A DNA stretch of 64,000 bases from an uncultured bacterium (lineage in GTDB: Bacteria > Zixibacteria > MSB-5A5 > GN15 > FEB-12): contig CBFDBU010000010.1 of assembly GCA_965603125.1 (NCBI GenBank), positions 8,734-72,733 on the forward strand, given 5' to 3'. Both the position numbers and the translations under genes were made by a program. The stretch's first letter is position 1, and every line of letters begins with the position of its first letter. Positions 6,622 to 53,704 of this stretch are shown here, piece by piece. Below the pieces are notes generated by a model, which was not told the DNA's origin, searched no databases, and saw only the letters and a program-made list of their open reading frames with translations.

Positions 6622-6637
6622 AATAATCTATCCTCTC

Positions 6638-34629: not shown

Positions 34630-34662
34630 CGTCTGCCGCAGTCTTCTGAGGATTAAACGAAC

Positions 34663-37600
34663 TCAGTCTGACATGAGAAATATAACAAATTTTGTCCCCT
34701 TGTCAATCTCAGATTCGACGGCAACGTCACCGTCGTACAGTTCAGCTATCTTCCTGACCATAGCCAACCCCAGGCCGGTGCCGAAGGTCGGCTTCGTGCT
34801 GTAAAACGCGTCGAATACTCGCGGTATTTCTTCGCCGGGGATGCCGCATCCGGTGTCGGCGAACTCCACCTTGAGGCGTTGGCCTTCCTTCCGAGCTGAA
34901 ATGTCCAGAACGCGCACCGGGGTGTCCCGCATGGCATCCAGGGCATTGACCGTCAGGTTGTTAAACAGGCTGTGAACATGTGGCCGGAAGCTCCGCAAGG
35001 TGAAATGATCCGCGATCTCGAGGTTAACGCTGACGCCCAATTCATGAATACGCAGCTCATGACTCTCCAGGACCTCCAGGAGGACCGACCGCAGGTTGAC
35101 CCCCTCAGTCTTCTTCTGCGACTCAAGTTTCGAGAACTGGGTCACCAGTCCGGTCATGTCGATTGCCCGCTCCACGGCGCTCTCGGTCAGGCCCAGCAGC
35201 TTTCGGTTGCGACGGATTTCCTCCACCTCCCCGAGGTGGAGCCGCTCTTTCAGCTTGTGAAGGCTGCTGGTGGCGGGGAAGAGGGCGTTGTAAATCTCGT
35301 GCGCCACGCCACCGGCAATCCGCTTGACCTGGTCATATCGTTCCCTGTTGGCTGCGGCCAGTTTTCTCTCTGCTTCTCGGTGCTTGGTGATGTCAATGAT
35401 GATCCCCCTCAGGCCCGCTGCGCTGCTGTCGACAACGATCCGATCGGTGTAGATCATGACCGGGAAGGTGCTACCGTCCTTCCTGAGCACAGTGTATTCA
35501 CTGCCGCTGATCCCATCCCCGTTGAGCGTCCTGTCTATGTCTTCCCGGACCCTGTCGCGGTCCTCGGAAACAAACAGATCGAGAGCATTCAAGCCCTTAT
35601 CCAGGTCTGTCTTCGCGTAACCGGTGGTCTCGAAACCATGCTGGTTGGCGAAGGTGAAACTGCCGTCGCGGTCCATTTCGAACAGAGTCAGGGGCAGAAG
35701 TTCGGCCAATTCACGGAACTTCTTCTCGCTCTTGCGAAGCGCCTCCTCCGCTACTCTGCGCATAGTCACATCATGGGCAATGACAAGCGCGGCCGTCGTT
35801 GTGCCCTGGGCATCCCGGTACGGCTGAAGGTTAGTATGGAACCACCGCCACCGGCCGTCGACAAAGCTTCTGGACTCCGTGGTGAGTTCCGTTTTGGATT
35901 CGATAACACGGCGGATATTCCGCATCTGTCTGTCGGCTACGTCCTTCGGAAAGAGGTCCCATTGCGATTTGCCGGCAATCTCGTCCGATTTCCGGTTAAG
36001 CGCCCTTGCGGCATTCTCGTTGACGAAAAGGAACTTGCCTTCCCAACTGACCAGGGCGATGGCGGCCCCGACGTTCTGTACCAGCAGACGGTATTTCTCT
36101 TCGCTTGCGCGGATGGCCTCTTCAGCGCGTATGCGTTCGGTTACGTCGCGACAGAACCCAATGACTGCGTCCTGGCCGCCGAACTTCTGTCGCGAACTGC
36201 TGATATCAACATAGATCACTCTGCCGTCCTTGCGCACCATGGGCAGCTGCGATACGAGGCGACGGGCATCGATGGTTGCACGCCGGAACTCAGAAAGGGC
36301 GTGCTGAACCTGTGACTTGGGGATAAGATCGCCCACGCGCATCTGCAGCAACTCTGTCCGGGAGTATCCCAACATGCGGCACATCGCAGGATTGGCGTAG
36401 ATGTATTTCCGGGTTTTCGCGCCGGCGGCCAGAATGCCGTCCGTAGACGATTCGGCCAGCGTAACGTAGCGCTGATCGCTTTCCCTGAGAGCCTGGTGAG
36501 CCAATCTGCGCTCCGTGATATCCTGGCCCACGGCAATAGCGGTGAGCTCCTCCGAGTCGGCTGAAAAGAGAGCCGAATTGGACCACAGAATGGTCCTGGT
36601 TTCACCAGACCTTGTCCTGAGCGGGCCTTCATACATGTTGCGGGGGTTCTGCCTCACCCAGTCAGCGAAACTCATCGGGTGATGGTGATGGTGTTCGGTG
36701 GGCAGGAATATCTCCGGCCAGCTCTTGCCGATGACTTCCTCGCGCGAGTACCCGGTGACCTTCTCGATCTCCCGGTTGAAGACCGTTATCCTGGCCTGGC
36801 CGTCAAGGCAGACAATCAGGCTGTTGGCCGTATCCAAGAGCGAGTGTATGAAATCTCGTTCGCTCTGAAGTTCCTGCTGTGTTTGAACCAGGGCAGTGAT
36901 GTCACGCGAAATCACGAGAACCGACGCAACGGCGTTCGCCTTGTCCCTGATCGGTTCCATGCTGGTAAGGTATCGGGTCTTCTTGCCCTGCGACTCAATG
37001 TCCGACTCAAAAACGACACCGCTCCCGGTCTCGAATACTCCGGTAATGCGCTCTATGAACTGGGATGCCTGATCATGGAGCATGCAGTCCCGTATCGTGC
37101 TTCCGATGAGTTCCCGAGGGTCCCGGCCGAACACTTCGGCGCTGACATTATTGAGGTATAAGAAAACTCCTTCGCGGTCTACGGTGAAGATCGCCTCATG
37201 GGCGCTCTCCACCAGGGTGCGATATCTCTGTTCGCTTACCCTCAGGGCCTCATCCGTTCGTTCTCTCTGCGTGATGTCACGCGCCACGCCCTCCGACCCG
37301 ATAACGACGCCGTCTCTGTCTCTTAAGAGGGTGGCGCTGATACTCACGATCACGCGGCGACCGTCGCGGGCGATGAGTTCGGCATCGAAGTCGGTTACCT
37401 TACCGGATTGTCTCAGGAGCCGGTTGTACTGCTCGCGCCGGTCAGGATCTGCGTAAAAGCTGCGGGCCTCCTTGCCCACCATATCATCCTGAGAATCATA
37501 GCCCAGGACTCGGACGCCACCCGGAGACACCCACTGGACGCGACCGTGTGAGTCGATCTTGAAAAAGATATCCTGAGTGCTTTCTAAGATGGAGCGGAGT

Positions 37601-39114
37601 TGTTCCCGGCTCTTTGCCAAACGGCGAGCAGTCTTCTGCCGATAGGCGTTGACAATAACCAGCGCCAGGAGAAGGGCGAACAGCCCTATCAGAACAAAGT
37701 TCTGGTACTCCCAGAACAATATCCTGGCGTAATCACCGAACACCTTGCGTTTCACACTGACGACCGTGGCCGTATTGTCGCGAGTGGCGATGAACGAAAC
37801 GACGTGACCCTCGTTATCGAGTACGGTCGGGTGGAAGTGACGAAAATCGGTATCAAGGTGTGCCAGACGTTTGAACGCGGACGAATACAGCCCCATCCCG
37901 TCGCCTGCTGTGAAGAGGTAAGCCGGTCGCATCTGACCCTCAACGCGCACCGTATCCAGGAAGTGCTCCAAATCGGTCTCGTGCGATTGGGCCAGGAGAG
38001 TCAGGTTGTCATCGTAGATGCGGACGATGCCGCGTGACGAGAGAGTATAGAAGTCCACCGTGCCGTCACCGTCGTAATCATCCCGCCATCCACTTCTGAT
38101 ACGCTCGCCGACATCGACGGTTTTCAGAAGCCGGCCGTCCCGGTCGATTTTCGACAACTGGTACCGGTGGGGTGGCAGGTCGGCGGCTTGGTCGGGTTCG
38201 ATCATTGGCAGGGCGTGAAACACATAGAAGCACTCATCCCGCTCGCTGTGCCAGATCCCCTTGCTGCCGTGTTCCTCGGACAGTATACGACGAAAGAGCA
38301 GTCTGCCCCGGCTGTCGACTTTGGCCAGGTAGCAGAAACGGTCGCTGAAGTTCTCGTCCTCGACGCTGTTCTTGTAGTTGTAGGTCGCGAACATCACGGC
38401 CGGGTGAAGTGAGTCCCGGCAACTGAGGATATTACCGACACTGACCGGGGCCGCCACCGGCAGGGACCATTCGAGACGCAGGTTTTCCGGCTCGACACAG
38501 TATAGAATACGCGGCCTCAAGTCACGTCCCGGATCCAGGTAGAAGAACACCTCCTGAATACCGTCGTAGTCATAGTCATCGACCAATACCGGCGAGACCC
38601 GTCCTTCCCAGACCCCGTTACCGGTGAGGTCCTCTCCGGATGCCAGATAGATGAGATCGTGACGATCGGCCCGTGGCACAATCCTCACCATGAAAGCAGA
38701 ATCGTTGCGGTAGCATCCGGCGGCGATAGCTAAGCATCCCGCCTTACCGTCATAATAGAGGCGAAAGCCTGAGACAGTCGCATACAGCGGATCCCAATCC
38801 AGAACCTGGGAGTGAGTGATATCGTTGAAACTGAACACAGCCGGTTCGTCGCGGTTGACGTCACCGTTAAAAGCGTGAACGAGAAGAGCCGTGTCCGACA
38901 CGGCGTCCTGCACCCGATAGACCTGCATGGCATCGGAGACAGGGATTTTCCCGACGCCCCAGTCATGGAAGTGCCGTTCACGGAAAGTGTACGGGAGCAA
39001 CCGATCATCGCAGGCGCAGTCGATTTCAATCTCGTCGACAGTCCCGGCAGCGGCATTGAGCGTCAGAAGGCATACGAGCGCTGGTACGGCCGTTTTCAAA
39101 TACTCGTTCAACAT
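34663..39114 (-). CDS. giant sensor histidine kinase: ~465-aa periplasmic domain with FG-GAP-like motifs, one TM, six PAS domains, HisKA and HATPase_c
   Basis: 1483 aa with a signal/TM N-terminus. Periplasmic motifs are VDDYDYDGIQEVFFY and RDDYDGDGTVDFYTL. The TM segment is FVLIGLFALLLALVIVNAY. There are six PAS repeats, each ending ..(A/G)RDIT.R... The H-box is IAGGVAHEIYNAL. The N and G boxes are NLTVNALDAM, DTGCGI and GTGLGL. A 33-nt gap separates it from the response regulator gene. Confidence 0.85.
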   Translation of the reverse strand: MLNEYLKTAVPALVCLLTLNAAAGTVDEIEIDCACDDRLLPYTFRERHFHDWGVGKIPVSDAMQVYRVQDAVSDTALLVHAFNGDVNRDEPAVFSFNDITHSQVLDWDPLYATVSGFRLYYDGKAGCLAIAAGCYRNDSAFMVRIVPRADRHDLIYLASGEDLTGNGVWEGRVSPVLVDDYDYDGIQEVFFYLDPGRDLRPRILYCVEPENLRLEWSLPVAAPVSVGNILSCRDSLHPAVMFATYNYKNSVEDENFSDRFCYLAKVDSRGRLLFRRILSEEHGSKGIWHSERDECFYVFHALPMIEPDQAADLPPHRYQLSKIDRDGRLLKTVDVGERIRSGWRDDYDGDGTVDFYTLSSRGIVRIYDDNLTLLAQSHETDLEHFLDTVRVEGQMRPAYLFTAGDGMGLYSSAFKRLAHLDTDFRHFHPTVLDNEGHVVSFIATRDNTATVVSVKRKVFGDYARILFWEYQNFVLIGLFALLLALVIVNAYRQKTARRLAKSREQLRSILESTQDIFFKIDSHGRVQWVSPGGVRVLGYDSQDDMVGKEARSFYADPDRREQYNRLLRQSGKVTDFDAELIARDGRRVIVSISATLLRDRDGVVIGSEGVARDITQRERTDEALRVSEQRYRTLVESAHEAIFTVDREGVFLYLNNVSAEVFGRDPRELIGSTIRDCMLHDQASQFIERITGVFETGSGVVFESDIESQGKKTRYLTSMEPIRDKANAVASVLVISRDITALVQTQQELQSERDFIHSLLDTANSLIVCLDGQARITVFNREIEKVTGYSREEVIGKSWPEIFLPTEHHHHHPMSFADWVRQNPRNMYEGPLRTRSGETRTILWSNSALFSADSEELTAIAVGQDITERRLAHQALRESDQRYVTLAESSTDGILAAGAKTRKYIYANPAMCRMLGYSRTELLQMRVGDLIPKSQVQHALSEFRRATIDARRLVSQLPMVRKDGRVIYVDISSSRQKFGGQDAVIGFCRDVTERIRAEEAIRASEEKYRLLVQNVGAAIALVSWEGKFLFVNENAARALNRKSDEIAGKSQWDLFPKDVADRQMRNIRRVIESKTELTTESRSFVDGRWRWFHTNLQPYRDAQGTTTAALVIAHDVTMRRVAEEALRKSEKKFRELAELLPLTLFEMDRDGSFTFANQHGFETTGYAKTDLDKGLNALDLFVSEDRDRVREDIDRTLNGDGISGSEYTVLRKDGSTFPVMIYTDRIVVDSSAAGLRGIIIDITKHREAERKLAAANRERYDQVKRIAGGVAHEIYNALFPATSSLHKLKERLHLGEVEEIRRNRKLLGLTESAVERAIDMTGLVTQFSKLESQKKTEGVNLRSVLLEVLESHELRIHELGVSVNLEIADHFTLRSFRPHVHSLFNNLTVNALDAMRDTPVRVLDISARKEGQRLKVEFADTGCGIPGEEIPRVFDAFYSTKPTFGTGLGLAMVRKIAELYDGDVAVESEIDKGTKFVIFLMSD

Positions 39115-39279
39115 GAATACCTGACAAGATACGCAACCCGCACAAGAAAATCAACGTTCCGGAACCGATTCCTACTCAACTGTCACCGAGAGGCTCTTAT
39201 GCGGACACGGCGCATGACGAGTTGTCTCATGTGGTCGCGGGGCTGAATCCGGCGCTCGAGAAAACGCTCGCGACAACTG

Positions 39280-39312
39280 AAAAGGTCACCACAGACAACG
39301 GTTGTGGTGACC
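39280..39312 (-). terminator. rho-independent terminator between the giant FG-GAP gene and the kinase gene
   Basis: The minus strand reads GGTCACCACA-ACCGTTGTC-TGTGGTGACC (perfect 10-bp stem) followed by TTTTCAGTT. It starts about 42 nt after the stop at 39354. Confidence 0.6.
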
Positions 39313-39353: not shown

Positions 39354-42300
39354 TCAGAGATCGCAGATAGGCTCCGGGCCATTCACAAACATGTAGTCGA
39401 CCAGGTAAACCAGATCAGCAATGTCAATCAGAGTTCCATTCTCACCGTCCATATTGGCCGCTCGCAGGTCCGGCGGCTCCGGGCCCTGGTTGAACATGTA
39501 GTCGACCAGATAGACCAGATCGGCGATATCGATGACTTCCTGCCAGTCACCGTTGACGTCGCCGCATATGTATTCCTCGTCCTTGTTCAGGAGCAACGAC
39601 ATATCCTGAGTGTTCTCGTTGACGGTTACCAGATCGAGATCGCCGTCGCCGTCGAAATCCGCCGCTACGACAACTTGGGGATTGATACCTGTCGCATACT
39701 GTCTGGAGGAGTTGTATATGCCGCCGCCGCTGTTTCTGAGAACGGATACGTCGTTGGACACGCCGTTGGCCGTGGCCAGGTCAATGTCGCCATCACCGTC
39801 GAGATCAGCCGCGACAAGCGAGTAGGGGATATCTCCAACATCGTATGTCGCACCGGGACTAAAGCTGCCTTCGCCGTTGTTGTAGAGGACGGAGACGTCA
39901 CCGGAGGTAACGTTGGCGGCGGCCAGGTCAAGCCGGTCGTTCCCGGTCAGATCAGCCGCAAAGACGGACTGCGGGAACACACCTACGGGGTAGACCACAG
40001 CAGGCGCGAAAACGCCGTTGCCGTTGTTCATCAGGATGGATACGCTGCCGTCGAACTTGTTGGCCGTTACCAGGTCGATATCACCATCGTTGTCGAAATC
40101 GCCGGCGAATATGCAGTAAGGATGGTCGCCCACGACATAGGCCGAGTCCAGGGTGAAAACACCGAGGCCGTCGTTCTTGAGGATCGTGACACTGTCCTCG
40201 CCCGTGTTGGCCGTAGCCAGGTCAAGGTCTCCGTCACCGTCGAGGTCGGCGGCAAAGAGCGAGCGGGGGTTAAGGCCGACCTGATACGTGACTTCGTTAC
40301 CGAAGTCTCCTGTCCCGTCATTTATCAGGATCGTGACACTGTCCTCGCCCCCGTTGGCCGTGGCTAGGTCCATGTCGTCGTCTCCGTCAAAGTCGCCGGA
40401 GAAAACCGAATAGGGACTGTTGCCTACGCTGTAGGTCGCATCCAAAACGAAGGTGCTGTCTCCGGCATTGAGCATGATCGAAACAGTGTGAAAGAGTAGG
40501 TTGGCAGTAGCGATATCCAGGTGGCCGTCGCCGTCAAAATCAGCGGCAAAGGCGCCCCGGGGGCTGACACCGATGGAGTTGTCGAGATGGTCCCCGAAGG
40601 AGCCGGCGCTTCTGACAGCCCGGGCTGTGAACGACCAGACTCGACCGCTGTCCAAGGGGTAGCCTTCGGCGGAATTGACCTCGGGAAGCAGCACCGCCGT
40701 GACGACCTCACCGGCCTTGAATGTCGAGTCGGGATGGAAAGACGCCGTCCTGGACGGAGCGTCGTAACTGAATGAACCGTGCTGGAGTCCCTTTGACTTC
40801 GCCATGACTATCAGCGATGAACTGTTGAAGGACGACGCCTCGACATCATCATTGAAAGTCACGGAGATGTCGGCGTCGGATGCAATGTCCGCCCTGTTGG
40901 GTGGCGGCCAGACCGATGCTATCTGGAACAGAGCGCGGTTCCAGAGCACGGAGACGGTGTTGGCCGACGCGTTAGCGACAACCAGGTCGATATCTCCGTC
41001 AATCTGAAGGTCGGCGGCAAAGACCGACAACGGCCCCTCGCCGGCGTCGTAAGCGGCGTGTTCGGCAAAAGTACCGTCGTCGTTGTTCAGCAGGACGGAG
41101 ACGGAGGCGGAGCCGAAGTTAGCTGTGGTCAGGTCAAGGTCGCCATCGGCGTCCAGGTCGGCGGTGGCAATTGAGAGAGGCTCGCTGCCGACGGCGTAGT
41201 TCACGCAGTCCGCAAATGTGCCGTCCTGATTGCTGATAAGAATGGAGACGCTGTCGGTACTGTGGTCTGCCGTCGCCAGGTCGAGATGGCCGTCATCATT
41301 GAGGTCGGCGGCCAGCAGCGCCATCGGGCCGCCGTCGACAGAATAGGCCGAATCCAGATTGAAACCGGTGCCATCGCCGTTGTTCAGAAGCAGTGATACA
41401 GTTCCAGAAGAATCGGCTGTCGCCAGATCCAGGGCGCCGTCATCGTTGAGATCGGCGGCACAGACAGACTGCGGCGACAGGCCCGTCTCATAGACCGACT
41501 GCTCGGCGAAAGTGCTGTCGCCGTTGTTGAGCAGCACTGATACGTTGCTGGAAAGCATATTCACCACCCCGAGATCGACGTATCCGTCTCCACTGAGGTC
41601 AGCGGCAAAGACCGATCGGGGCTTCGAACCAACAACGACCTTGGTCTGGGTGGCAAAGGTGCCGTTACCATTATTTAGCAGGATGGAGACACTGTCTTCA
41701 TCATAGTTCGCACTCACCAGGTCGAGACTGCCGTTGCCATCCATATCGGCAGCGACAACCGAGATCGGATTGTCGCCGACCTCGTAGAGAGCTTGCGGGC
41801 TGAAGGTGCCATCGCCGTTGCTCAGCAGGACAGACAGGCTGTCCGATGCCGCGTTTGCTACAACCAGGTCCGGAAAGGCGTCATCATTGAGACAAGCGGC
41901 AATCACACAGGTAGGCTCCTCTTTCACCTCATAAGCGGAATCGACGGCGAAGGTGCCGATGCCTTCATTGACTATCGTTGTGAACGACCAGGTGTGGCTG
42001 GTGTCAAGGGGGTAGTCCTGAATCGACTTGACATCGGAAGTAACGATCATCGTGACTACCTCGCCGTGGTCGAAATTAACGACGGGATCAAACGTGGCGG
42101 TCATGGTCGGGTCATCATAGCTGATTGTCCCCGAATGTTTGCCCGTCAGGCTCGAGTACACTACAAATGAGGAATCGTGGAAACTGTCGCCGTTCATACT
42201 GTAGTTGAAGGTTACCGAGATGTCCGTGGAAGGAGGGAGGTTCAACTCGTTGGGCGCCGGTGTCAGTTCCGTGATCTCAACGATGGCTCGATTCACGATT

Positions 42301-45300
42301 ACGGAAACGTCGTTGGAATTAGAGTTGGCGGTGGCAAAATCCATGTCACCGTCGTTGTCGAAATCAGCGGCAAAGACAGATGTGGGGTAGTTACCGACCG
42401 GAAACGATATAAACTCAGTGAAAGTGCCATTGCCGTTGTTGGTGAGAACCAGCAGATCGTTGCTGTTACTGTTCGCCACCACGAGGTCGAGGAAACCGTC
42501 GCCGTCGACGTCGGCTGCGAATACGGAAGACGGCCTGTCGCCGACGGCGTACCTGACCGTATCGACGAAGGTGCCGTCCTGTTTGTTCCTGAGAAACGAG
42601 ATACTGTCACCTTTGGCGTTTGCAGTCACCAGGTCAACGTAGTCGTCGCCGGTGAACTCGGCTGCAATCACGCACACCGGGTCAAGACCGGCCACATACG
42701 CAGAGTCGAGGACAAATTCGCCGAAGCCGTTGTTCATCAGTACCGAAACGCTGTCGTGAAGGATGTTGGCGGTAACCAGGTCCAGGTCGTTGTCGTTGTC
42801 GAGGTCCGCGGCAACTACTGACTGCGGACTTATTCCCACCGCGAAATCACTGGGGCTGCCAAAGGTGCCGTCACCGTTACCGACCAGCAGCGACACGTCG
42901 TTGGAACCCTCGTTGGAAGTGACCAGGTCGAGCTTGCCGTCCCCGTTGAGATCGGCGGCCAGGATACCGCCGGGATCGTCTCCGGTAGTGTACTCAACGT
43001 GAGCGGCAAAGCCGCCGCCTTCCTGGAGCAGCACTGAGACCTGGCTCGTGTTTCTATCGGCAGTAGCCAGATCGAGCAGGCCGTTACCATCCAGATCAGC
43101 CGCCACCACGGAGGCCGGACCGGAGGAGACTTCAAGGACGATATCGGGAAGGAAGGTACCGTCCCTGTCATTCAGCAGGATAGAGACGCTGTTGGTGTCG
43201 GTGTTTGCGACCACCAGATCCAGAAAGTCGTCGTCGTTAATATAGGCTGAAAAGACCGAGGAGGGTTTCTCCCGCACCGGGTAGACCACTTGAGGACCAT
43301 AGGTGTCCGACCCGTGGAGGGCCTCGGTCGTAAAGGACCAGATAAAAGCGGTGTCAAGAGAATAGCCCTCGAGAGTCTTGACGTCAGTTGTGAGCACGAC
43401 CGTGACGAGTTCGCCCTCCTTGAAATCCACGTCAGGGTCGAGAGTCGCCGTCTGATCGTTGTAAGCAATGACACCCTGGTGCCGACCCGTGGAGCGAGCA
43501 TTGACCACGAATGAGGTGGCGGTGATGGTCGCGTCATCCATATCCACGTCAAAAGTCACGGAGATGTCAGTTGCAACGGGTGTGTTTTTCGCGTTGGGCT
43601 CCGGTGACACGGACACGACATGGGGAATTGCCCGGTTGAAGAAAACCGTCACGGTGGAGTCGTATCTATCCGCCGTTGCCAGGTCAACATCACCGTCGCC
43701 GTCGTAGTCGGCGGCAAAGAGTGAATTGGGAGCTTCCCCGGTCGGAAAAAGCGACGGTGCCGAGAAGTTGCTAGCACCATCGTTGAGGAGTACGGCAATG
43801 TCATCGGATTCGAAGTTGGCCACTGCCAGGTCCAGATCCCCATCACCGTCGTAGTCGGCGGCCGCGACCTGGGACGGATTGTTACCGGCCTCGTACAGTT
43901 GCTGAGTGCCGAAAGTGCCGTCCTGGTTGTTCAGGAGAACCGAAACATCGTCGGACAGGCCGTTTGCCGTGACCAGGTCAGGAAGGGTGTCGCCGTTGAC
44001 GTCGACTGCAATAACGGAATAGGGTATAGTGCCCACCATGTACCAAGCCTGGTCGGAGAAGTCGCCCTCGCCATCGCTCAGGAGAACCGAGACCCTGGCG
44101 GTGGCATCGTGCGAGACAGCCAGGTCAACGGCGCCATCCAGATTAAAGTCTTCCGCGCAGATGGAGTGGTTCTGCCAACTGACGGGGACAACTGTCCGCG
44201 GATCGAACCCGCCCTGGCCGTCGTTCCAAAGGATAGAAATCTCAGCGGCATTGTGTTGAGAGGTCGCCAGATCAGGATAGCCGTCGGCGTTCAAATCGAT
44301 CGCCACGACGCTGAACGGTTGAGTACCTACAGCGTACCGCAGATGCTGTTGATAGGTGCCGTCCCCATTATTCAGCAAGACAGACACATTGTTACCGTAC
44401 TGGTTGGCAGTAACCAGGTCCATATAGCCGTCACGGTCGATATCAGCGGCCACCACGCAATACGGAGCTTGGCCGACCGGGTATTGCGAATCAACGGCAT
44501 ACGTGCCGTCCCCGTTGTTGAAAAGGACCGAGACACTGTCGGACATCCATTCGGCAGTAGCCATGTCGATGTCTCCGTCACCATCGAGGTCGGCCGCGAA
44601 AACCGACGCCGGAGCATCGTTCACCGCGTAGGCGGAGTCAACGGCAAAGGTGCCGAAGCCGCCGTCCACGGCGGTTGTGAAGGTCCAGGTCAGAGCACTC
44701 TCCACGGGAAACCCCTCGGATGTGAGGATGCCCTCGGTAGCCACAACCGTTACCGGCTCGCCGGCGCTGAAGTCAGTGCCGGGGTCAGCGGTGGCTGTCT
44801 GGGAGGGGCCGTCGTAGCTGATTGCGGCCGAGGATGGACCGGAGGATCGCCCGGTTATGACCAGGCTGCTACCGTCAATGGACGAGCCGTTCATCTCGGC
44901 ATCGAAAGTCACGGTGACATCCGTAGCGACGGAGACGTTCAGTTCTCCCGGCTCCGGCGTGACATCCACAATCTGAGCAATCGTCCTGTTGAGCAGAACC
45001 GACACCTCATCGGAGTTTGCGTCGGCGGTAACCAAATCAACACCGCCGAAAGCATCTATGTCCGCGGCGCAGATAGAGTACGGATACGCACCCGTTGGAA
45101 AGAAGCTGCTTGAGCCGAAGACGCCGCTCCCGTTGTTGTGCATGATCGAGATATTGTCGGTGTCCCGGTTACACGTGGCCAGATCCATGTCACCGTCACC
45201 GTCGACATCAGCAGCAACGACAGAACTGGGGTAATCACCGACAGCATAATTCACGGCTGCTGCAAAGCCGCCGGCACCGTTGTTTATCAGCACCGAAACG

Positions 45301-46421
45301 CTGTCGTGTTTAGTGGCCGTAACTGCCAAATCGAGGTACCCGTCGTCGTCGAGGTCGGCGGCGCACAGAGCGAACGGGTCGTGAGACACTTCGATGATAA
45401 CAGCACCGGGTACGAAGCTGCCGGAGCCGTCGTTGGACAGCACGGTGACCGTGTTTCCGGTCTGGTTGGCGGTGGCGAGGTCAAGGTCATCATCGTTGTT
45501 CAGGTCGGCCACAACGATCGAGGTCGGGTTCTCGCCAACACTATAGTTGTCAGGCGGGGTTGCGAAGGTACCGTTGCCGTTATTGGAGAAAACAGACACG
45601 TTGCTGGAAAAGGCATTGGCCACCGCCAGATCCACGTCCCCGTCGCCGTCGATGTCGATGGCGCATACTGACAGTGGCTCGGTGCCGGCGATGTATGCCA
45701 CGTGGTTCTGGAAGGTGCTGTCGCCATCATTGATGACGACCGAGATATTGTCCGTGTTGCGGTTGGCCGTCACCAGGTCGAGGTAGCCATCGCCGTCAAG
45801 ATCAGCCGCACAGACGCCGAAAGGGTCCCCGCCTACTGCCAGAACGAGATCGTCGGAGAAAGTGCCGCCGCCCGCGTTGAATGCTACGGAGATGTTGTTG
45901 TCGCTGCCGTAGTTCGCTGTGACAATATCCGGTAGACCGTTACCGTCGACATCGGCCATTATCACCGTGCGCGGATCATCCCCGACCGAGTAACTCGTAT
46001 CCACGGCAAAAGTACCCACGCCATCGTCGGTGGCCGCAGTGAAAGACCAAAGGCAAGGGCTGCCCAGGGGATTGCCGATGCTCGACTGAACAGCGGTCGT
46101 TAGTGCGATCAACACGACCTCTCCTTCGAAGAAGGCTGAGTCGGGATCGAATGTCGCGGTATAGGTCTGGTCGTCGTAGCTGTAGGTGCCGCTGTGCGGT
46201 CCCGAAGAGAGGCCGGCAATAATGAAAGAGGCACCGGTCAGTGTGGATGAATTCATGTCAATGTCAAAGGTCACCGAGACGTCGGCCGTAGCTGACACAT
46301 CAAGGTCGTTCCGGAGCGGTGATGTGGATGTTACTGTCGGCGTCTGGGCGAAAAGGGCAGCGTTGCCGACCAGCAACGCCGTGATCGCAGCAGTGATAGT
46401 GTTTCGCAGCTTCCTACGCAT
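39354..46421 (-). CDS. giant secreted protein: 5 x (Ig-like domain plus seven FG-GAP/VCBS repeats) plus C-terminal twin dockerin-like module
   Basis: 2355 aa. The signal peptide is MRRKLRNTITAAITALLVGNAALFAQ. There are 35 D-x-(D/N)-x-D-G-type loops embedded in VxAADLDGDGxLDLxxAN...VSVLLNNGDGTF repeats. The C-terminus reads CGDVNGDWQEVIDIADLVYLVDYMFNQGPEPP..ANMDGENGTLIDIADLVYLVDYMFVNGPEP. AAGGAG lies 8 nt before the ATG. Confidence 0.85.
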   Translation of the reverse strand: MRRKLRNTITAAITALLVGNAALFAQTPTVTSTSPLRNDLDVSATADVSVTFDIDMNSSTLTGASFIIAGLSSGPHSGTYSYDDQTYTATFDPDSAFFEGEVVLIALTTAVQSSIGNPLGSPCLWSFTAATDDGVGTFAVDTSYSVGDDPRTVIMADVDGNGLPDIVTANYGSDNNISVAFNAGGGTFSDDLVLAVGGDPFGVCAADLDGDGYLDLVTANRNTDNISVVINDGDSTFQNHVAYIAGTEPLSVCAIDIDGDGDVDLAVANAFSSNVSVFSNNGNGTFATPPDNYSVGENPTSIVVADLNNDDDLDLATANQTGNTVTVLSNDGSGSFVPGAVIIEVSHDPFALCAADLDDDGYLDLAVTATKHDSVSVLINNGAGGFAAAVNYAVGDYPSSVVAADVDGDGDMDLATCNRDTDNISIMHNNGSGVFGSSSFFPTGAYPYSICAADIDAFGGVDLVTADANSDEVSVLLNRTIAQIVDVTPEPGELNVSVATDVTVTFDAEMNGSSIDGSSLVITGRSSGPSSAAISYDGPSQTATADPGTDFSAGEPVTVVATEGILTSEGFPVESALTWTFTTAVDGGFGTFAVDSAYAVNDAPASVFAADLDGDGDIDMATAEWMSDSVSVLFNNGDGTYAVDSQYPVGQAPYCVVAADIDRDGYMDLVTANQYGNNVSVLLNNGDGTYQQHLRYAVGTQPFSVVAIDLNADGYPDLATSQHNAAEISILWNDGQGGFDPRTVVPVSWQNHSICAEDFNLDGAVDLAVSHDATARVSVLLSDGEGDFSDQAWYMVGTIPYSVIAVDVNGDTLPDLVTANGLSDDVSVLLNNQDGTFGTQQLYEAGNNPSQVAAADYDGDGDLDLAVANFESDDIAVLLNDGASNFSAPSLFPTGEAPNSLFAADYDGDGDVDLATADRYDSTVTVFFNRAIPHVVSVSPEPNAKNTPVATDISVTFDVDMDDATITATSFVVNARSTGRHQGVIAYNDQTATLDPDVDFKEGELVTVVLTTDVKTLEGYSLDTAFIWSFTTEALHGSDTYGPQVVYPVREKPSSVFSAYINDDDFLDLVVANTDTNSVSILLNDRDGTFLPDIVLEVSSGPASVVAADLDGNGLLDLATADRNTSQVSVLLQEGGGFAAHVEYTTGDDPGGILAADLNGDGKLDLVTSNEGSNDVSLLVGNGDGTFGSPSDFAVGISPQSVVAADLDNDNDLDLVTANILHDSVSVLMNNGFGEFVLDSAYVAGLDPVCVIAAEFTGDDYVDLVTANAKGDSISFLRNKQDGTFVDTVRYAVGDRPSSVFAADVDGDGFLDLVVANSNSNDLLVLTNNGNGTFTEFISFPVGNYPTSVFAADFDNDGDMDFATANSNSNDVSVIVNRAIVEITELTPAPNELNLPPSTDISVTFNYSMNGDSFHDSSFVVYSSLTGKHSGTISYDDPTMTATFDPVVNFDHGEVVTMIVTSDVKSIQDYPLDTSHTWSFTTIVNEGIGTFAVDSAYEVKEEPTCVIAACLNDDAFPDLVVANAASDSLSVLLSNGDGTFSPQALYEVGDNPISVVAADMDGNGSLDLVSANYDEDSVSILLNNGNGTFATQTKVVVGSKPRSVFAADLSGDGYVDLGVVNMLSSNVSVLLNNGDSTFAEQSVYETGLSPQSVCAADLNDDGALDLATADSSGTVSLLLNNGDGTGFNLDSAYSVDGGPMALLAADLNDDGHLDLATADHSTDSVSILISNQDGTFADCVNYAVGSEPLSIATADLDADGDLDLTTANFGSASVSVLLNNDDGTFAEHAAYDAGEGPLSVFAADLQIDGDIDLVVANASANTVSVLWNRALFQIASVWPPPNRADIASDADISVTFNDDVEASSFNSSSLIVMAKSKGLQHGSFSYDAPSRTASFHPDSTFKAGEVVTAVLLPEVNSAEGYPLDSGRVWSFTARAVRSAGSFGDHLDNSIGVSPRGAFAADFDGDGHLDIATANLLFHTVSIMLNAGDSTFVLDATYSVGNSPYSVFSGDFDGDDDMDLATANGGEDSVTILINDGTGDFGNEVTYQVGLNPRSLFAADLDGDGDLDLATANTGEDSVTILKNDGLGVFTLDSAYVVGDHPYCIFAGDFDNDGDIDLVTANKFDGSVSILMNNGNGVFAPAVVYPVGVFPQSVFAADLTGNDRLDLAAANVTSGDVSVLYNNGEGSFSPGATYDVGDIPYSLVAADLDGDGDIDLATANGVSNDVSVLRNSGGGIYNSSRQYATGINPQVVVAADFDGDGDLDLVTVNENTQDMSLLLNKDEEYICGDVNGDWQEVIDIADLVYLVDYMFNQGPEPPDLRAANMDGENGTLIDIADLVYLVDYMFVNGPEPICDL
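39582..46343 (-). repeat. five tandem super-modules of 448-452 aa (~1.35 kb each)
   Basis: Module boundaries were counted by hand on the translation: aa 27-478, 479-929, 930-1377, 1378-1828 and 1829-2280. In nucleotides these are 44988-46343, 43635-44987, 42291-43634, 40938-42290 and 39582-40937. Modules 2-5 open with NR(A/T)I..I....P.P......(T/A)D(I/V)(S/T)VTF; module 1, which follows the signal peptide directly, lacks the NR(A/T)I opening but has the corresponding ADVSVTF core. Confidence 0.8.
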
Positions 46422-46582: not shown

Positions 46583-49500
46583 CTATGGGCAACTGACGGG
46601 CGGCGGGTCGCCATTGAACATAAAGTCCACTAGGTAGACCAGGTCGTCGATAGCCAGCACACCGCCCCCGTCGCCGTTTACGTCCGATTCGTCAAAACAG
46701 ACCGGCGCCGGGCCCTGATTGAACATGTAGTCGACAAGGTAAACCAAATCCGCTATGTCAATCAACACGGCGTTATCGTAGTTGATATCGCCTCTTATCG
46801 GCGGGATACAGCACTCACCGATTCTTCGGTACAGACCGGCCGGTCCCGGCGCCTGCACGGGAGAATCGAAGCCGAACTTCAGATAAGCGAAATTGATTAT
46901 CTCAGCACCGGACATTAGGCCCTGATCGGGATTCACAGAATAAGTGATATAGCCTTCACCGTCCGGGGGCGACACGTTTGGCGGCAGGTAGATCTTATCG
47001 CAGTACCATGTAAGCTCGCCGGTCAGAACGTCGAATCCCACGAACCTGCAGGCTTCCGGATGACTCATCTCCCCGATGCTGAGGGAACTGGAACTCCAAT
47101 CAAGGTTGACATCGAGCGTGTCAACAATCTCAATAGATGAGATCGGTGCGGTAGCCTCTGCTGCATTCTCGAAAGCTATCGTATACGAGAGTCGCTGATC
47201 CGGCTCTATGGCATAGGCCAGATTAGTCCCGTTGGGAGAAGCCAACTTGTCGGCACTGTAGGCAGTTCGCGTGCCCGATTTAGAGGGGTTGGTCACGATC
47301 TGGGCGTGGCGAACGTAGTCGTTGCGGCTGTTGCCGTCCGCGGTAGTAGTCGATAGCCACATCTCCGTGACCAGCGTGTCAAAACCGGGCGTTACCTGGG
47401 ATGACAGCGTACCATAGGGTACGATGCGATTCCAGTCATTGGAAGGTTCAATCGTGCCCAGCGACATTACTATCGTATCACCCACAAAGCTGTACTGGCC
47501 TGGGTTTATGACGGCCCCGGAGGAATCTCTGATTCCCTCAAACGCCATCGCAGCCGGAAGGAGCACCTTCAGAGTGCAGTCCTCGGCGGGTAGATTGCCG
47601 GCGTTGTGGAATGAACACCAGTACCAGATATCATACCCGGGCCGGGAACCCCAGGCGTTGATATTGACCTCGGCGTACAGATCGGACCACAGAATGTTCC
47701 GCACCTGGATGAACTCAAGCTTCTTGTGGGGGTTCGATTCTTCCACGGCGTTGCGCACTGTAAGAGTGACTTCAAACCGTCCGGGATAGCCGTACTTGTG
47801 GGTCGGATTCTGGACGGAACTGTGCTGGCCGTCACCGAAGTCCCAGTCCCACCAATCGGGGGCGCCGGTTGTATCGGCGTAGAACTGGAACACCGTCGAC
47901 GTATCACCGGCCGTCGGGGTGGCCGTGAAGTCGGCAACCAGGTCGATCGGGTCAACAACCGTGAAGCAGTATGGTCCACCCCAATCCGGTACGTAGGTCT
48001 CGCTGCCCGTCGCCCAGATCCATTCGTTGCTGGGAGGATACCAGGTCGAATCCAGGCAGACTTCAGCGCCGCGGAACTTGGCATCAATAGGATCGAGGGT
48101 GATAGTGTATGCCACTATGTCAAGACCGTTAGGCACGCCGACACCCTGCAGGGCGTATCCTCCAAACCCGGTAGTGTCGCCACTCGCGCCGAAACTATTG
48201 ACAAACCGGCCGCCATCAAGGCTGGTGGAATCGTCGAAACCGCTTGTGCTGACTGCGCTGCTCACACTTATCGGAGTTCCGGTGGGCGAGTAGATGCGGA
48301 AACCGTTCGTCAGGCCGGGGATATCAGTACCCTTGGTGGCGATTACGTTCGAGACCCTGATGTGGAACGTGATCGGTTCACCCGCTCTTATGTAGCGGCT
48401 TGAATGATAGAGCCCGTCAACGTAGTCAAGGTATACGTTTCCGCCAGGCTGCGTAGAGCGGCTGGTCTGCTTTCCGCCGATGGGAGGGGGAGGGGGGGGA
48501 CCGCCTTGAAACAGGTAGCCCACCAGGTACGTCAGGTCTCCCACATCCACACCAGGCACTCCATCCATGTCCGCTGCTTCCATTATCGGCGGCGGCGGCC
48601 CACTCCCGAACAGGTATGCAACCAGGTAGGTGATATCGCCGACGTTAACACGGCTGTCGTCGTTGACATCACCGCAGACGTAGACCGGTTCCGGCCTGAT
48701 ATGGTCGTCGTACCACTGATGGCAGGCCTCAGCATCGGCGATAAAGGCTGCATAGTTGACGTTGCTGGTGATCATGCACTTGTAGACCTCTAACGTGTCA
48801 TCCGGGCCAAGGGTGTAATCCCAGCGGAATGTCATCACCGCGTGCAGATCGGCATCAACCGAATCCGAGAGCACATAACCTTCGTTGTTGGCCATGTACA
48901 TGTATATCGAATCCGGAACGAACGCGCCCGCGGGATAGACCTGGGTCGAGTTGTCCATTGTGTAGCAGCCGTACTGCTCACCCGCCGGTTCACCGTTCTC
49001 TAAGATTTGCAGCAGCTCGATGCCGCCGTAACGATCACTGTTGTTCATGCACTCGTAAGCATCATCCTGGTCCCACTCCGAACCCTGCTGATAAATCAGG
49101 CGGAGGCCGGGATCGAAACCGCAGCGGTTACGAGCCGCCGAGTCGGAGGGAATATCCCAATCGATCGCCTCACCAATGGCCAGACCCTCGTGCGTCTCGC
49201 CATCCTGGGCGTAGACCTTCATGTACTGAATCAGGAAGTGACAACTGTCAACCGCCGCGCGCGGCGCAATCCAGTTATTCTCAAACATGATACCAGAGTC
49301 ACGCGTCACGAACGAAGACTGGAACACCTCGTAGTCGCCCATGTCGGTCGGCGGCGTGTGGCTCCATGGGAAGAAACCATTATCAGAGAGGTAACCGTCG
49401 CCGAAGATCGACCAGTTGCAGCGGACCGTGTCGGTCGCATCCATCCAGCAGATCACCGGTGAGGCGTCATTGACATAGATCGTGGCGTTACCCGGAATGG

Positions 49501-51880
49501 TGTCACCCGGACTGCCTTCCTCGGCGTCGTCACAGTCACCATAGTCGAAGTAATCCATGTTGACCTGCCCGATGCCCTGTTGACCCCAGTTGCCGTTGTT
49601 GCCAACAGTCAGAGCCATGCATGCGTCTTCGTCACCGGCATAAATGGTATCCCAGACCGGCGTTATAACCGTGTCCACAACCCGGTGCTCGATCTCAATG
49701 GTGTCGGGACCGGTTACATGGTTACCGCCTATGATCAGACGACCGGAAAGAATAGTCACCATGCCCGGGTCGCCACCAACCGTACCCAGGGCATTAATGT
49801 ACACCTGACCGGTCATAATACCGGCAAGACCAGACGGAAGGACGACGGTACCCTGCAAGTTGCCCGAAACATCCAGCCAGCCGGCAGGCCCTTCATCTTC
49901 TTCAGGTGTCACCGTGAAGGTAGCAGCCGAGTTACCCGTGTTCTCCAGCACCAGATCGGTGTCATGGATCACGTATTGATGGGACCAGGAGGGGAAACCA
50001 ATTGAGGTCCACGACGGCGCCAGCAGAGGCGTCGCCTCCGGGTCCACACAGACCAACTGGAATGATTGCACGTTAGCATTCTGCCAAGAGCCCTCATTCT
50101 GGACAATAGCACCCGCATCCGGGTCACTGATGTACTGCACGCTCATATACCAACCGTTGTCTACGGCAAGATCCCCCGCAGGGAGCAATATCTCAGCTCC
50201 CGTCATGTCGTCGCCGACAATGTTGGTGCCAAAGCGCGCCATCGACGGCCAGTGATCCGACTCACAGCGACCACCCGTGCCGCTGGCGGAGTCACAACCC
50301 GGCGTATGCGAGTTGGTCAGGTTACGAGGCAGATCCCAGGTCAGACCACCATCGTCCGAAACAGCCAGGTACAGTTCGCCGTTGGCCGAACCTACCACGT
50401 CCCCAGTCTGAGCACGGGCAGCACAGTCGTCCATCATGATATTGGGATCGTTGAACTGAACCCACAGGTAATACAGCCTGCCGTTGCACTCGGAAATGGT
50501 CATCTTGGAACCATTCATCTGCCAGGCGCCACCGTTACAGGTCGTTTGGTTCCAGTCCAGGTTCCCGGCGGTACGAATGATGGCGTTGTCAGTCTGCGGG
50601 TCAGGCCCGTCGAAACCTCCAGTCCCCAGGTTCTCACCCCAGTGGAACATACGGCAGTTCAGACCGATGTAACCGCCACTACCGGCGTCAGCCGGCCAGA
50701 TACGGCCGCTCCAGCCAATATGCAGAGCGTTAACACCGTTGGCCGCATCCTGCGTGATCAGGGCCGACAGGTCGGTGTAAGGACGGAAACCAGCCTCACC
50801 GTCAACGTTCTTGGTCACGTTAACACGAGGATTGAAGTCAGCGCCGTAGTTGTCCGAAATCTGGTAGTAGATATCATTGTCCAGCTGGACAAAGGGCGAG
50901 GTACCGGAACAGGTGTCGCAGTCACCGTCATTGGGCAGGTTGCCCGTCCAGACCAGGGCCATCTTGCCGTCGGTCATGGAGCAGGCCACATCCTGCGAGA
51001 GATCATAAATGGTGTCGATCACGTAAGGCGGATAATCCCAGGCGCCATCCATTCCAATTCCCACCTTGCGGAAATAGTAGATCACCAGTTGGTCACCTGC
51101 GCCTGGTGAGGAGGATTGCGCAATCACGTGTGTTACCGGCTCGTGCCCGGCCACGTCATGATAACGCATGGCCGGCCAGGACGCCGAATTCCCCGTCATG
51201 GCGGGATAGGACTGCACACTGTCAGGCACACGGGAAGTTAGACCGAAATAGGCGCACATCGGACAGTAATCGTAGTACACCTGGCTAGCGCAGCCGCTCC
51301 CCTGGTTGTTGTGGCAGATTATGACGGCTTGGTTTGCGGCCTGAAGAATGGTTTCACCCTCAGTCCGCAGCATCTGGGTCACATCAAGACCGCCGCCTGC
51401 GGCATATTCACTCGGAGACTGAACGGACACCCCCAGGCCAGGATAAAGTTGCGTGCCGGTCTGACCCATGTAGCAGTTGTAGTAGATATGATAATCTTCC
51501 AGAACCGGACCCGGCAACTGCATATAGCAGTAATGAATCGCGAAGCCATAATCCATACCGTCACCCAAGTCAGGACCCCAACCCCAGTCGACCATGCGGC
51601 CCATCGAGCCGTTACGCTGTTGGTCGTACCAGGTCTCACCGACCTTGACTCCGGGAGATGCCGTGGCGACCCCGGCACCGCCTAAAGACATAGCCGGTGC
51701 GCTTCTGTCTGGGGCGGCTGTCGACCTGGTTTCATCCGGAAACACGTATTGCATCGCCCGCGCTACATGGGGATTGGCAATGTCGCTCTCCTGCGGGGAG
51801 TCTTTCCCCGAAACCGGAGCAACCAGCATGACAACGGCAAATGCGGTAATCATCGTCCGTGAAAAAACTCCTCCTGTCAT
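46583..51880 (-). CDS. giant secreted multidomain protein: N-terminal BNR/Asp-box-containing region, internal dockerin-like module, PKD domain, C-terminal dockerin-like module
   Basis: 1765 aa with signal peptide MITAFAVVMLVAPVSG. An Asp-box reads LAVSDDGGLTWD. The internal dockerin CGDVNDDSRVNVGDITYLVAYLFGSGPPPP..ADMDGVPGVDVGDLTYLVGYLFQGGPPPPPP starts at aa 1069. The PKD domain reads FTATPTAGDTSTVFQFYADTTGAPDWWDWDFGDGQHSSVQNPTHKYGYPGRFEVTLTVRN. The C-terminus reads RGDINYDNAVLIDIADLVYLVDYMFNQGPAP..SDVNGDGGGVLAIDDLVYLVDFMFNGDPPP. GGAGGAGG lies before the ATG. Confidence 0.8.
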   Translation of the reverse strand: MTGGVFSRTMITAFAVVMLVAPVSGKDSPQESDIANPHVARAMQYVFPDETRSTAAPDRSAPAMSLGGAGVATASPGVKVGETWYDQQRNGSMGRMVDWGWGPDLGDGMDYGFAIHYCYMQLPGPVLEDYHIYYNCYMGQTGTQLYPGLGVSVQSPSEYAAGGGLDVTQMLRTEGETILQAANQAVIICHNNQGSGCASQVYYDYCPMCAYFGLTSRVPDSVQSYPAMTGNSASWPAMRYHDVAGHEPVTHVIAQSSSPGAGDQLVIYYFRKVGIGMDGAWDYPPYVIDTIYDLSQDVACSMTDGKMALVWTGNLPNDGDCDTCSGTSPFVQLDNDIYYQISDNYGADFNPRVNVTKNVDGEAGFRPYTDLSALITQDAANGVNALHIGWSGRIWPADAGSGGYIGLNCRMFHWGENLGTGGFDGPDPQTDNAIIRTAGNLDWNQTTCNGGAWQMNGSKMTISECNGRLYYLWVQFNDPNIMMDDCAARAQTGDVVGSANGELYLAVSDDGGLTWDLPRNLTNSHTPGCDSASGTGGRCESDHWPSMARFGTNIVGDDMTGAEILLPAGDLAVDNGWYMSVQYISDPDAGAIVQNEGSWQNANVQSFQLVCVDPEATPLLAPSWTSIGFPSWSHQYVIHDTDLVLENTGNSAATFTVTPEEDEGPAGWLDVSGNLQGTVVLPSGLAGIMTGQVYINALGTVGGDPGMVTILSGRLIIGGNHVTGPDTIEIEHRVVDTVITPVWDTIYAGDEDACMALTVGNNGNWGQQGIGQVNMDYFDYGDCDDAEEGSPGDTIPGNATIYVNDASPVICWMDATDTVRCNWSIFGDGYLSDNGFFPWSHTPPTDMGDYEVFQSSFVTRDSGIMFENNWIAPRAAVDSCHFLIQYMKVYAQDGETHEGLAIGEAIDWDIPSDSAARNRCGFDPGLRLIYQQGSEWDQDDAYECMNNSDRYGGIELLQILENGEPAGEQYGCYTMDNSTQVYPAGAFVPDSIYMYMANNEGYVLSDSVDADLHAVMTFRWDYTLGPDDTLEVYKCMITSNVNYAAFIADAEACHQWYDDHIRPEPVYVCGDVNDDSRVNVGDITYLVAYLFGSGPPPPIMEAADMDGVPGVDVGDLTYLVGYLFQGGPPPPPPIGGKQTSRSTQPGGNVYLDYVDGLYHSSRYIRAGEPITFHIRVSNVIATKGTDIPGLTNGFRIYSPTGTPISVSSAVSTSGFDDSTSLDGGRFVNSFGASGDTTGFGGYALQGVGVPNGLDIVAYTITLDPIDAKFRGAEVCLDSTWYPPSNEWIWATGSETYVPDWGGPYCFTVVDPIDLVADFTATPTAGDTSTVFQFYADTTGAPDWWDWDFGDGQHSSVQNPTHKYGYPGRFEVTLTVRNAVEESNPHKKLEFIQVRNILWSDLYAEVNINAWGSRPGYDIWYWCSFHNAGNLPAEDCTLKVLLPAAMAFEGIRDSSGAVINPGQYSFVGDTIVMSLGTIEPSNDWNRIVPYGTLSSQVTPGFDTLVTEMWLSTTTADGNSRNDYVRHAQIVTNPSKSGTRTAYSADKLASPNGTNLAYAIEPDQRLSYTIAFENAAEATAPISSIEIVDTLDVNLDWSSSSLSIGEMSHPEACRFVGFDVLTGELTWYCDKIYLPPNVSPPDGEGYITYSVNPDQGLMSGAEIINFAYLKFGFDSPVQAPGPAGLYRRIGECCIPPIRGDINYDNAVLIDIADLVYLVDYMFNQGPAPVCFDESDVNGDGGGVLAIDDLVYLVDFMFNGDPPPVSCP
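48482..48676 (-). other. internal twin dockerin-like module plus poly-Pro linker inside the 1765-aa protein
   Basis: It spans aa 1069-1133. The Cys codon lies at 48674-48676 and the P6 run is encoded by 48482-48499 (the coding strand contains a C8 tract). Confidence 0.7.
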
Positions 51881-53702: not shown

Positions 53703-53704
53703 AG

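Follow-up and report, generated by a model that had tools for sequence, protein, structure and literature searches.

A giant Zixibacteria protein built of five Ig-like and FG-GAP propeller cassettes with a dockerin-like tail

A single gene for five Ig-propeller cassettes

The window analyzed here is a stretch of 64,000 nucleotides (nt) from an uncultured member of the Zixibacteria (assembly GCA_965603125.1, contig CBFDBU010000010.1), to our knowledge a phylum without cultured members. On its reverse strand, at 39354..46421, lies a gene for a predicted secreted protein of 2355 amino acids (aa) with multiple propellers. The gene was defined from a list of open reading frames (ORFs) and the translation; it starts at an ATG, its stop codon occupies 39354-39356, and all of the parts described below are on the minus strand. 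Reading from the N-terminus, the protein consists of a Sec-type signal peptide, five modules that each join an immunoglobulin (Ig)-like domain to a seven-bladed FG-GAP propeller, and a C-terminal tail that resembles a dockerin. The signal peptide (aa 1-25, 46347..46421; MRRKLRNTITAAITALLVGNAALFA then Q) was called by eye from the translation, without a predictor, on the basis of a basic N-terminus, a hydrophobic core, and an A-x-A-like cleavage site. A terminator-like hairpin, which is a consensus match only, follows at 39269..39293 on the same strand, 61 nt 3′ of the stop codon.

Module limits were set by cutting at the V-x-x-N-R junctions, giving a module region of 39597-46346. Module 1 covers aa 26-474 (449 aa, 45000..46346), with a Big_5 Ig-like domain at aa 26-130 (nt 46032-46346) and a seven-blade propeller at aa 131-474 (nt 45000-46031). 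Module 2 covers aa 475-925 (451 aa, 43647..44999), divided into Ig aa 475-584 (nt 44670-44999) and propeller aa 585-925 (nt 43647-44669), and is followed by module 3 at aa 926-1373 (448 aa, 42303..43646), with its Ig domain at aa 926-1033 (nt 43323-43646) and its propeller at aa 1034-1373 (nt 42303-43322). Module 4 extends over aa 1374-1824 (451 aa, 40950..42302; Ig aa 1374-1483, nt 41973-42302; propeller aa 1484-1824, nt 40950-41972) and module 5 over aa 1825-2275 (451 aa, 39597..40949; Ig aa 1825-1934, nt 40620-40949; propeller aa 1935-2275, nt 39597-40619). The anchor motif D[VI][ST]VTF recurs at aa 47, 501, 952, 1400, and 1851, with spacings of 454, 451, 448, and 451. The initial annotation of this DNA had described a periodic five-fold array at 39582-46343, which is the module region of this single ORF, and had left the strand and the 80-aa tail unmentioned. 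All four junction peptides that it quoted, together with the module 1 core (DVSATADVSVTF), are present in the translation. Its module lengths (452, 451, 448, 451, and 452) are exact for modules 2 to 4, while modules 1 and 5 measure 449 and 451 here, a difference that depends on where the ends are drawn.

Three Pfam families were found in the protein and no others: Big_5 (PF13205) in five stretches (E 4e-61, 204.7 bits against a cut-off of 23.6), FG-GAP_3 in 30 stretches (E 2.8e-196, 636.8 bits against 26.9), and FG-GAP (E 2e-83, 273.7 bits against 22.1). A hidden Markov model (HMM) of the blade resolves 35 blades, seven in each module, with a 49-aa period that appears in the DNA as a period of 147 nt. 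The alignment of the five modules is nearly gap-free, with 79 invariant columns out of 455. By these profile matches, the protein is assigned to the FG-GAP/VCBS propeller superfamily with Big_5 Ig-like domains.

We used module 4 for structure prediction with AlphaFold2, with an alignment of 27 modules as input (the five from this protein and 22 from database relatives). The resulting model has a mean predicted local distance difference test score (pLDDT) of 94.3 and a predicted template-modeling score (pTM) of 0.92. As assigned by DSSP, residues 1-110 are all-beta and form an eight-strand sandwich, which is the Ig domain, followed by six complete four-strand blades; the seventh blade is completed by a short strand after the Ig domain in a "velcro" closure. 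On this model, the repeats are predicted to close into seven-blade propellers of the FG-GAP/VCBS supercluster. The Pfam matches and this confident single-module model together back the five-fold repetition of an Ig-like domain plus a seven-blade propeller that had been proposed from the sequence, and we consider the structural part of our description, architecture and fold, to be close to certain.

Foldseek comparison with the PDB placed the fungal seven-blade N-acetylglucosamine (GlcNAc) lectins AAL2, PVL, and PAL at the top (E 4e-12 to 8e-11, identity ~17%), with ITFG2, CRTAC1, and the EPTP domain of LGI1 at the next ranks (template-modeling score, TM-score, up to 0.79 for LGI1). When the module profile was searched against PDB sequences, matches included PVL (1.8e-16), CRTAC1 (2.4e-13), integrin alpha-V (3e-7), and the "secreted esterase" entries 9oee/8w20 (E 1.4e-11 and 3.7e-9). 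Propellers of the TcB type from Tc toxins (YenB, TcdB2-TccC3) were also matched by the profile, at E 5.7e-7 to 2.7e-5, and occupied ranks 17, 23, and 27 in Foldseek. Such matches speak for a Tc-toxin/RHS component, whose propeller would be similar to those found in insecticidal Tc toxins (subunits TcB/YenB). They cover the shared FG-GAP blades only, however, and no RHS/YD repeats, TcdB_toxin_midN, SpvB, or toxin C-terminal domain were found with Pfam, leaving a toxin component extremely improbable.

The 35 blades were mapped onto the strands of the predicted model. Each blade runs from strand A (P-x-S-V-x-A-A-D) through the A-B cation loop to strand B (D-L-x-x-A-N), then through the B-C loop to strand C (V-S-V-L-L-N-N-G), the C-D turn (G-T-F), and the outer strand D. 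Loop AB is where the DxDxDG motif has been described (PMC8023676). Every one of the 35 blades has a cation-loop motif between its strands A and B, with the strict form D-x-D-x-D-G in 16 and the relaxed form [DN]-x-[DN]-x-[DN]-x-x-x-[DE] in 28. The initial annotation had counted exactly seven D-x-D-x-D-G blades per module; the number of blades stands, while the strict motif is limited to those 16 of 35. The loops presumably hold calcium. Across the 27 modules, the invariant propeller columns are just the Asp and Gly of the cation loops and the Asn and Gly of the NNGxG turn, and the invariant Ig-domain columns are a Pro, two Phe, and a Gly-Glu. Entropy peaks in two loops, B-C and D-A, and in the outer strand D, and the five modules of this protein differ from each other in all surface loops. 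In integrins, the calcium hairpins are located on one face of the propeller, opposite the ligand face, which is made up of the D-A and B-C loops; our placement of loops on faces is taken from this integrin topology and was not measured on the module model. The pattern of conserved and variable positions fits a conserved, calcium-stiffened scaffold that would present five different recognition faces.

The same columns bear on whether the protein could be an array of enzymes, in which each propeller is catalytic (an RGL11-like polysaccharide lyase, an esterase, or a dehydratase) and the dockerin-like tail delivers the array to a cellulosome-like complex. Dockerin-tagged proteins are classically enzymes, and the VCBS supercluster includes catalytic RGL11 propellers (PMC9218822). 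The PDB matches can also be read this way, since they include the two esterase entries given above and, by Foldseek, aldos-2-ulose dehydratase 4a7y. Against this, the invariant propeller columns of the 27 modules are structural Asp, Gly, and Asn only, without a conserved His, Arg, Lys, Ser, or Glu that could be a catalytic candidate, and the lack of any conserved non-structural residue argues against an enzyme. Further, all of the surface loops vary among the five modules, no catalytic Pfam or NCBIfam family was detected in the protein, and RGL11 propellers have eight blades as opposed to the seven per module here. We judge an enzyme array to be quite unlikely.

Age of the array and distribution of the cassette

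The five modules are clearly diverged. Pairwise identity is 40-48% for protein and 52-57% for codon-aligned DNA, and the longest DNA word common to any two modules is 17 nt. At conserved four-fold codons, third-position identity is 0.34-0.41, as compared with 0.32 expected from base composition, so synonymous sites among the modules are near saturation. The duplications are ancient, in agreement with the initial annotation, which had called the array old and length-constrained and not a recent duplication or collapse. At the level of single blades, identity is 43.6% between the same position in different modules and 42.4% between different positions (p = 0.08), and all 35 blades are about equidistant. 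Because blade identity is independent of position, the order of the blade and module duplications is not readable from the sequence.

The sequence probably derives from a metagenome assembly, where a tandem repeat could be collapsed or expanded and the five-fold count could be an artefact. In keeping with that concern, no contig spanning the M2/M3 or M4/M5 junction turned up when metagenome contigs were scanned for exact patterns. However, the words shared by the modules, at 52-57% DNA identity and no more than 17 nt, are shorter than any assembler k-mer or read, and there is therefore nothing to collapse on. The 7-kb frame is open throughout with its domain boundaries intact, an independent JGI contig matches the 3′ end of the gene with 100% identity for 1378 nt, and relatives with five or six cassettes are found in isolate genomes, such as those of Hymenobacter. 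An assembly artefact is thus hardly credible. The JGI contig (L083; 3300005820, Ga0078747_124052) is the sole independent contig found for the gene; it is identical to window positions 39606-38229 and covers just the last 83 codons and the downstream gene. Its first 52 nt (L083:1-52) are an Illumina Nextera adapter (…GTCTCGTGGGCTCGGAGATGTGTATAAGAGACAG) fused to the matching sequence and not a variant junction, and the 93-aa "protein" called from it, P0236, begins within the adapter.

No close homologue of the full protein was found. The closest full-length relative, P0001, has 2511 aa and five cassettes and is 40% identical (48% is the best-hit identity, over three cassettes). Among GTDB species representatives, the best locus is in a Zixibacteria metagenome-assembled genome at 43% identity, and the same scan adds many more phyla. 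About 70 of the 120 best matches to the module HMM carry 2-6 Ig domains. In these 120 matches, nearly all intervals between consecutive Ig domains contain seven blades, and a few double-length intervals contain 14. The dominant cassette spacing is 450-460 aa, with further classes at ~530-560 and 650-670 aa that hold one or two extra domains of ~100 aa. Named relatives come from Hymenobacter isolates, Ignavibacteria, Kapabacteria, Marinimicrobia, Bacteroidota, and Zixibacteria. In a profile search of 1.84 billion cluster representatives, 297,749 proteins matched at E <= 1e-3 and 87,846 at E <= 1e-30, the largest multi-propeller giants among them reaching 7386 aa. Thousands of database entries with Big_5 spacers already bear the name "FG-GAP-like repeat-containing protein", and uncharacterized proteins of similar build on deposit number in the tens of thousands.

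The strict five-fold periodicity noted at the outset is therefore present in this gene without being special to it, given relatives that carry two to six of the same cassettes. We also considered positional orthology of the modules with those of P0001 and P0006, which have five cassettes as well, and rejected it: the neighbor-joining tree is star-like, with partial clustering within proteins. Without positional orthology, copy number is lineage-specific and not a conserved "five". Judged by sequence comparison, the gene is a divergent new Zixibacteria member of a well-populated design common among giant bacterial surface proteins.

What varies among proteins on the same cassette chassis is the C-terminal tag. 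P0003 ends in Dockerin_1, P0004 in a cohesin plus a type IX secretion system (T9SS) sorting domain, P0002 in a T9SS sorting domain, and P0001 in CarboxypepD_reg. Dockerin_1, cohesin, and the T9SS sorting domain are tags for surface display, and we count them in favor of a surface role for the protein. On the contig that carries P0003 (L081:10001-15436), a rhodanese protein also has a dockerin. The cohesin of P0004 and the dockerins of P0003 and the rhodanese protein are hints of a non-cellulosomal cohesin-dockerin system in these lineages.

The C-terminal tail, the adjacent giant gene, and the surrounding window

The tail comprises aa 2276-2355 (80 aa, 39357..39596, minus strand) and contains two dockerin-like repeats, at nt 39471-39566 and 39366-39461, of the form GD-x-NGD...IDIADLVYLVDYMF-x-x-GPEP and flanked by Cys. 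The two DNA copies are 80% identical and lie 105 nt apart. In NCBIfam, the tail gives sub-threshold matches to dockerin_GC (E 0.007) and to the C-terminus of Omp28_seleno (Omp28-related, E 1e-4). A database search with the tail returned just seven short relatives, one of them annotated Zixibacteria; P0241, which is 58% identical to the tail, passes Pfam Dockerin_1 with 33.7 bits against a cut-off of 22.9. We know of no cellulosome in the Zixibacteria, and presume that the host is of the Gram-negative type. Our literature search found no paper that pairs Zixibacteria with dockerin. On its sequence, the dockerin-like tail is the best clue to a surface tether for the protein.

Within the window, the twin dockerin-like motif occurs in just this gene and its immediate upstream neighbor, which encodes 1765 aa at 46583..51880 on the same strand. 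The neighbor has the same twin tail at its C-terminus (nt 46598-46750), an internal twin (nt 48488-48637), and PKD and DUF11/DUF7619 domains. It also has one Asp-box motif (SDDGGLTW), and its first ~1060 aa matched no family, the sole PDB matches being sialidases at E 0.12. The 161-nt gap between the two giant genes is without a promoter-like site, and a promoter-like site is located before the neighbor at 52162-52134. Promoter and terminator calls are consensus matches whose counts are no higher than in shuffled sequence, and for this reason the statement of an operon is weak. The neighbor is possibly co-transcribed with the propeller gene and could be a partner. That two adjacent giant genes share the tail hints at a common tethering system.

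The window is a segment of bacterial chromosome with housekeeping genes (tex, uvrC, xseA, rpe, glk, holA, and sigma factors). The Tex protein encoded here is 100% identical to a metagenomic cluster, and among its matches above ~67% identity, all those with a named phylum belong to Zixibacteria or candidate division GN15. At 24244-25854 on the minus strand, a 536-aa single-propeller FG-GAP protein carries a T9SS Por_Secre_tail/FlgD_ig sorting domain, from which we conclude that the organism probably has a T9SS, although the five-module protein is without the tag. Directly downstream of the propeller gene, at 33280-39114 on the minus strand, are genes for a histidine kinase of 1483 aa, which contains six or more PAS domains, and for a sigma-54-dependent response regulator; a regulatory link of this pair to the two giant surface genes is possible. 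On the plus strand at 26075-27660, the genes for exosortase EpsH and for an EpsI-family (DUF3485) protein overlap or abut, a pair that indicates a PEP-CTERM-type sorting system and has no evident link to the propeller gene.

Mobile-element genes, a DDE_3 transposase and an rve-family integrase, are found at 20431-21519 (minus) and 53001-53666 (minus), and the integrase adjoins a tRNA-Gln (53704-53775). Positions 4001-8000 have a G+C of 0.42-0.48, as compared with ~0.57 elsewhere, and contain triple-rhodanese and sulphur-transport genes and a tRNA-Leu (7114-7199). Window positions 1-13088 are 100% identical to contigs of ENA ERZ25073477 (NODE_862) and JGI 3300028837, all of which end near 13.1 kb. 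The identical contigs in other metagenomes suggest that the same Zixibacteria population recurs in several.

Proposed function and comparison with known systems

The arrangement of the modules along the chain was modeled with AlphaFold2 for modules 3-4 (899 aa). Both modules are folded (pLDDT 88), and the pTM of 0.53 predicts no fixed inter-module orientation, although pTM gauges flexibility only weakly and indirectly and the two-module alignment had just 11 rows. The junction has no spacer, as the last strand of blade 7 (…VSVLLN) leads straight into the first Ig strand of the next module. The initial annotation had envisaged a very long multivalent fiber; with no fixed geometry predicted between modules, a jointed, flexible chain of five discs fits the model better than a rod.

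We propose that the protein is a secreted, calcium-stabilized, multivalent binding protein, like an adhesin or lectin, that is displayed at the surface and tethered by its dockerin-like tail. The Sec signal peptide would export the protein across the inner membrane. In each of the five cassettes, the Big_5 Ig-like domain would pack against a closed seven-bladed FG-GAP/VCBS propeller, whose blades each carry a DxDxDG-type cation site in the A-B loop, with the sites on one face of the disc. The variable B-C and D-A loops, opposite the calcium face, would give each propeller a ligand surface of its own, probably for glycans or other surface polymers. Since the cassettes have neither spacer nor fixed orientation, they may behave as jointed discs, and the C-terminal twin module would fasten the chain to a receptor of the cohesin type on the cell surface, where the chain may bind polymers or particles. 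VCBS-type propellers are typically modules for carbohydrate or protein recognition with cation-binding DxDxDG loops (PMC8023676, PMC9218822). We lean toward this proposal as a whole; ligand binding, surface location, and cohesin partnering are presumed parts of it.

Besides the indirectness of the pTM, several observations weigh against the proposal. The tail alone gets no Pfam dockerin match, even at E = 1, and no cohesin was found among the ~45 ORFs scanned in the 64-kb window. Pfam and NCBIfam detect no T9SS sorting domain (Por_Secre_tail/TIGR04183) in the protein, and because of this no route across the outer membrane can be assigned. We considered the protein as T9SS cargo and rejected that identity given the absent C-terminal domain. 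A conserved gene neighborhood was likewise rejected, as the genes around P0003 and P0001 bear no relation to those of the window, and with neighborhoods of the closest relatives not conserved, context gives no functional clue. Finally, the 8-11-residue insertions of PVL and AAL2 ("...GW...HPR", the sugar pocket before strand A) align to gaps here in HMMER alignments, and lectin activity is therefore not transferable by homology.

An alternative is a structural component of the envelope or matrix, such as a lattice like a surface layer (S-layer) or a biofilm scaffold, in which calcium-bridged discs self-associate. The molecule has up to 28-35 cation loops, it has Big_5 Ig domains, and the S-layer protein SbsC is among the Foldseek matches, at ranks 29 and 41 with a TM-score of just 0.18. 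The Vibrio matrix proteins Bap1 and RbmC have a propeller fold. FG-GAP/VCBS domains are mentioned for these two proteins (PMC3789753), and a part in self-recognition among bacteria has been suggested for VCBS proteins (PMC9218822). However, nothing indicates self-association of the present protein (no oligomer model was run), its divergent loops are more in line with diversified recognition than with a lattice contact that repeats, and the dockerin-like tail implies attachment to a receptor and not a lattice. We regard a structural role as somewhat unlikely.

Returning to the tethered binding protein, we speculate that it could be part of a wider arrangement, a non-cellulosomal cohesin-dockerin surface network of Ig-propeller cassette proteins in Zixibacteria and their relatives. 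Dockerin-tailed chains (the products of this gene and its neighbor, and P0003) would plug into T9SS-anchored, cohesin-bearing proteins of the P0004 type. If this is correct, the network would be a modular and exchangeable coat of integrin-like recognition discs with a specificity for each propeller, although we consider such a network doubtful.

The gene is a clean example of an Ig-like plus seven-blade FG-GAP cassette used as a reusable block of giant bacterial surface proteins, held at ~450 aa, stacked 2-6 times, and combined with interchangeable surface-display tags. In Zixibacteria, such proteins are candidates for attaching cells to particles or polymers. Current understanding is not overturned, and only two points are mildly unusual: a divergent twin dockerin-like tag that two neighboring giant genes have in common, and hints that cassette proteins may pair through cohesin and dockerin.

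Among solved structures, the PVL-type lectins (Psathyrella velutina PVL 2bwm, Agrocybe aegerita AAL2 4tqm, PAL 5mb4) are the best matches by both fold and sequence, and are seven-bladed, integrin-like, calcium-binding, multivalent sugar binders. They differ in that each consists of one propeller of ~400 aa, whose blades are longer, and has no Ig domain, anchoring tail, or repeat array. Identity as a PVL-type fungal lectin was rejected because the inter-blade GlcNAc pocket loop is absent. The integrin alpha head and CRTAC1/ASPIC are similar in having an FG-GAP or FG-GAP-like propeller with calcium loops on one face. Unlike an integrin alpha subunit, the present protein has no thigh or calf domains, transmembrane helix, or beta-subunit partner, and the match to alpha-V is modest (E 3e-7). 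No Integrin_alpha2 or leg-domain Pfam match was found in the protein, whose C-terminus is the soluble dockerin-like tail, and the identity of an integrin alpha subunit was rejected for want of these thigh, calf, and transmembrane features. The description "integrin-alpha-like" given initially is thus apt for the propeller fold and superfamily and for no other feature. In integrins, just 3-4 blades bind calcium.

With respect to its tail, the protein is like the type I dockerin of cellulosomal proteins in having a C-terminal duplicated segment of ~30 residues that starts with a D-x-N-x-D calcium loop followed by a helix. It is unlike a type I dockerin in that each repeat ends in a conserved Y-[ML]-F-x-x-GP-x-P, is bracketed by Cys, and is itself below the Pfam threshold. 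The closest counterparts for the whole architecture are the "FG-GAP-like" or "VCBS repeat-containing" proteins of Hymenobacter cavernae (P0014), Hymenobacter sp. GOD-10R (P0027), Ignavibacteria (P0013), and Zixibacteria (P0120), and metagenomic proteins P0001-P0010, which share the Big_5 plus seven-blade cassette, with 2-6 cassettes, an N-terminal signal peptide, and a C-terminal display tag. P0001 and P0006 have five cassettes, as here. The commoner tag in these relatives is the T9SS sorting domain, as opposed to the divergent twin dockerin-like tail of this protein.

There is good documentation of the VCBS supercluster and of its ongoing amplification (PMC8023676, PMC9218822). Chouhan et al. 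2011 (PMC3192720) described integrin-type propellers in bacteria that have seven blades, almost all of them with a calcium loop, and that in some cases are arranged in tandem. The propellers examined here are like those and like the VCBS supercluster (Pereira & Lupas 2021, PMC8023676) in their regular set of seven FG-GAP blades with a DxDxDG loop nearly everywhere, more uniform than in integrins. The proteins in PMC3192720 have one or two propellers each and an assumed cytoplasmic location, whereas in the present protein an Ig-like domain stands before each of the five propellers, and a predicted signal peptide and a dockerin-like tail are present as well.

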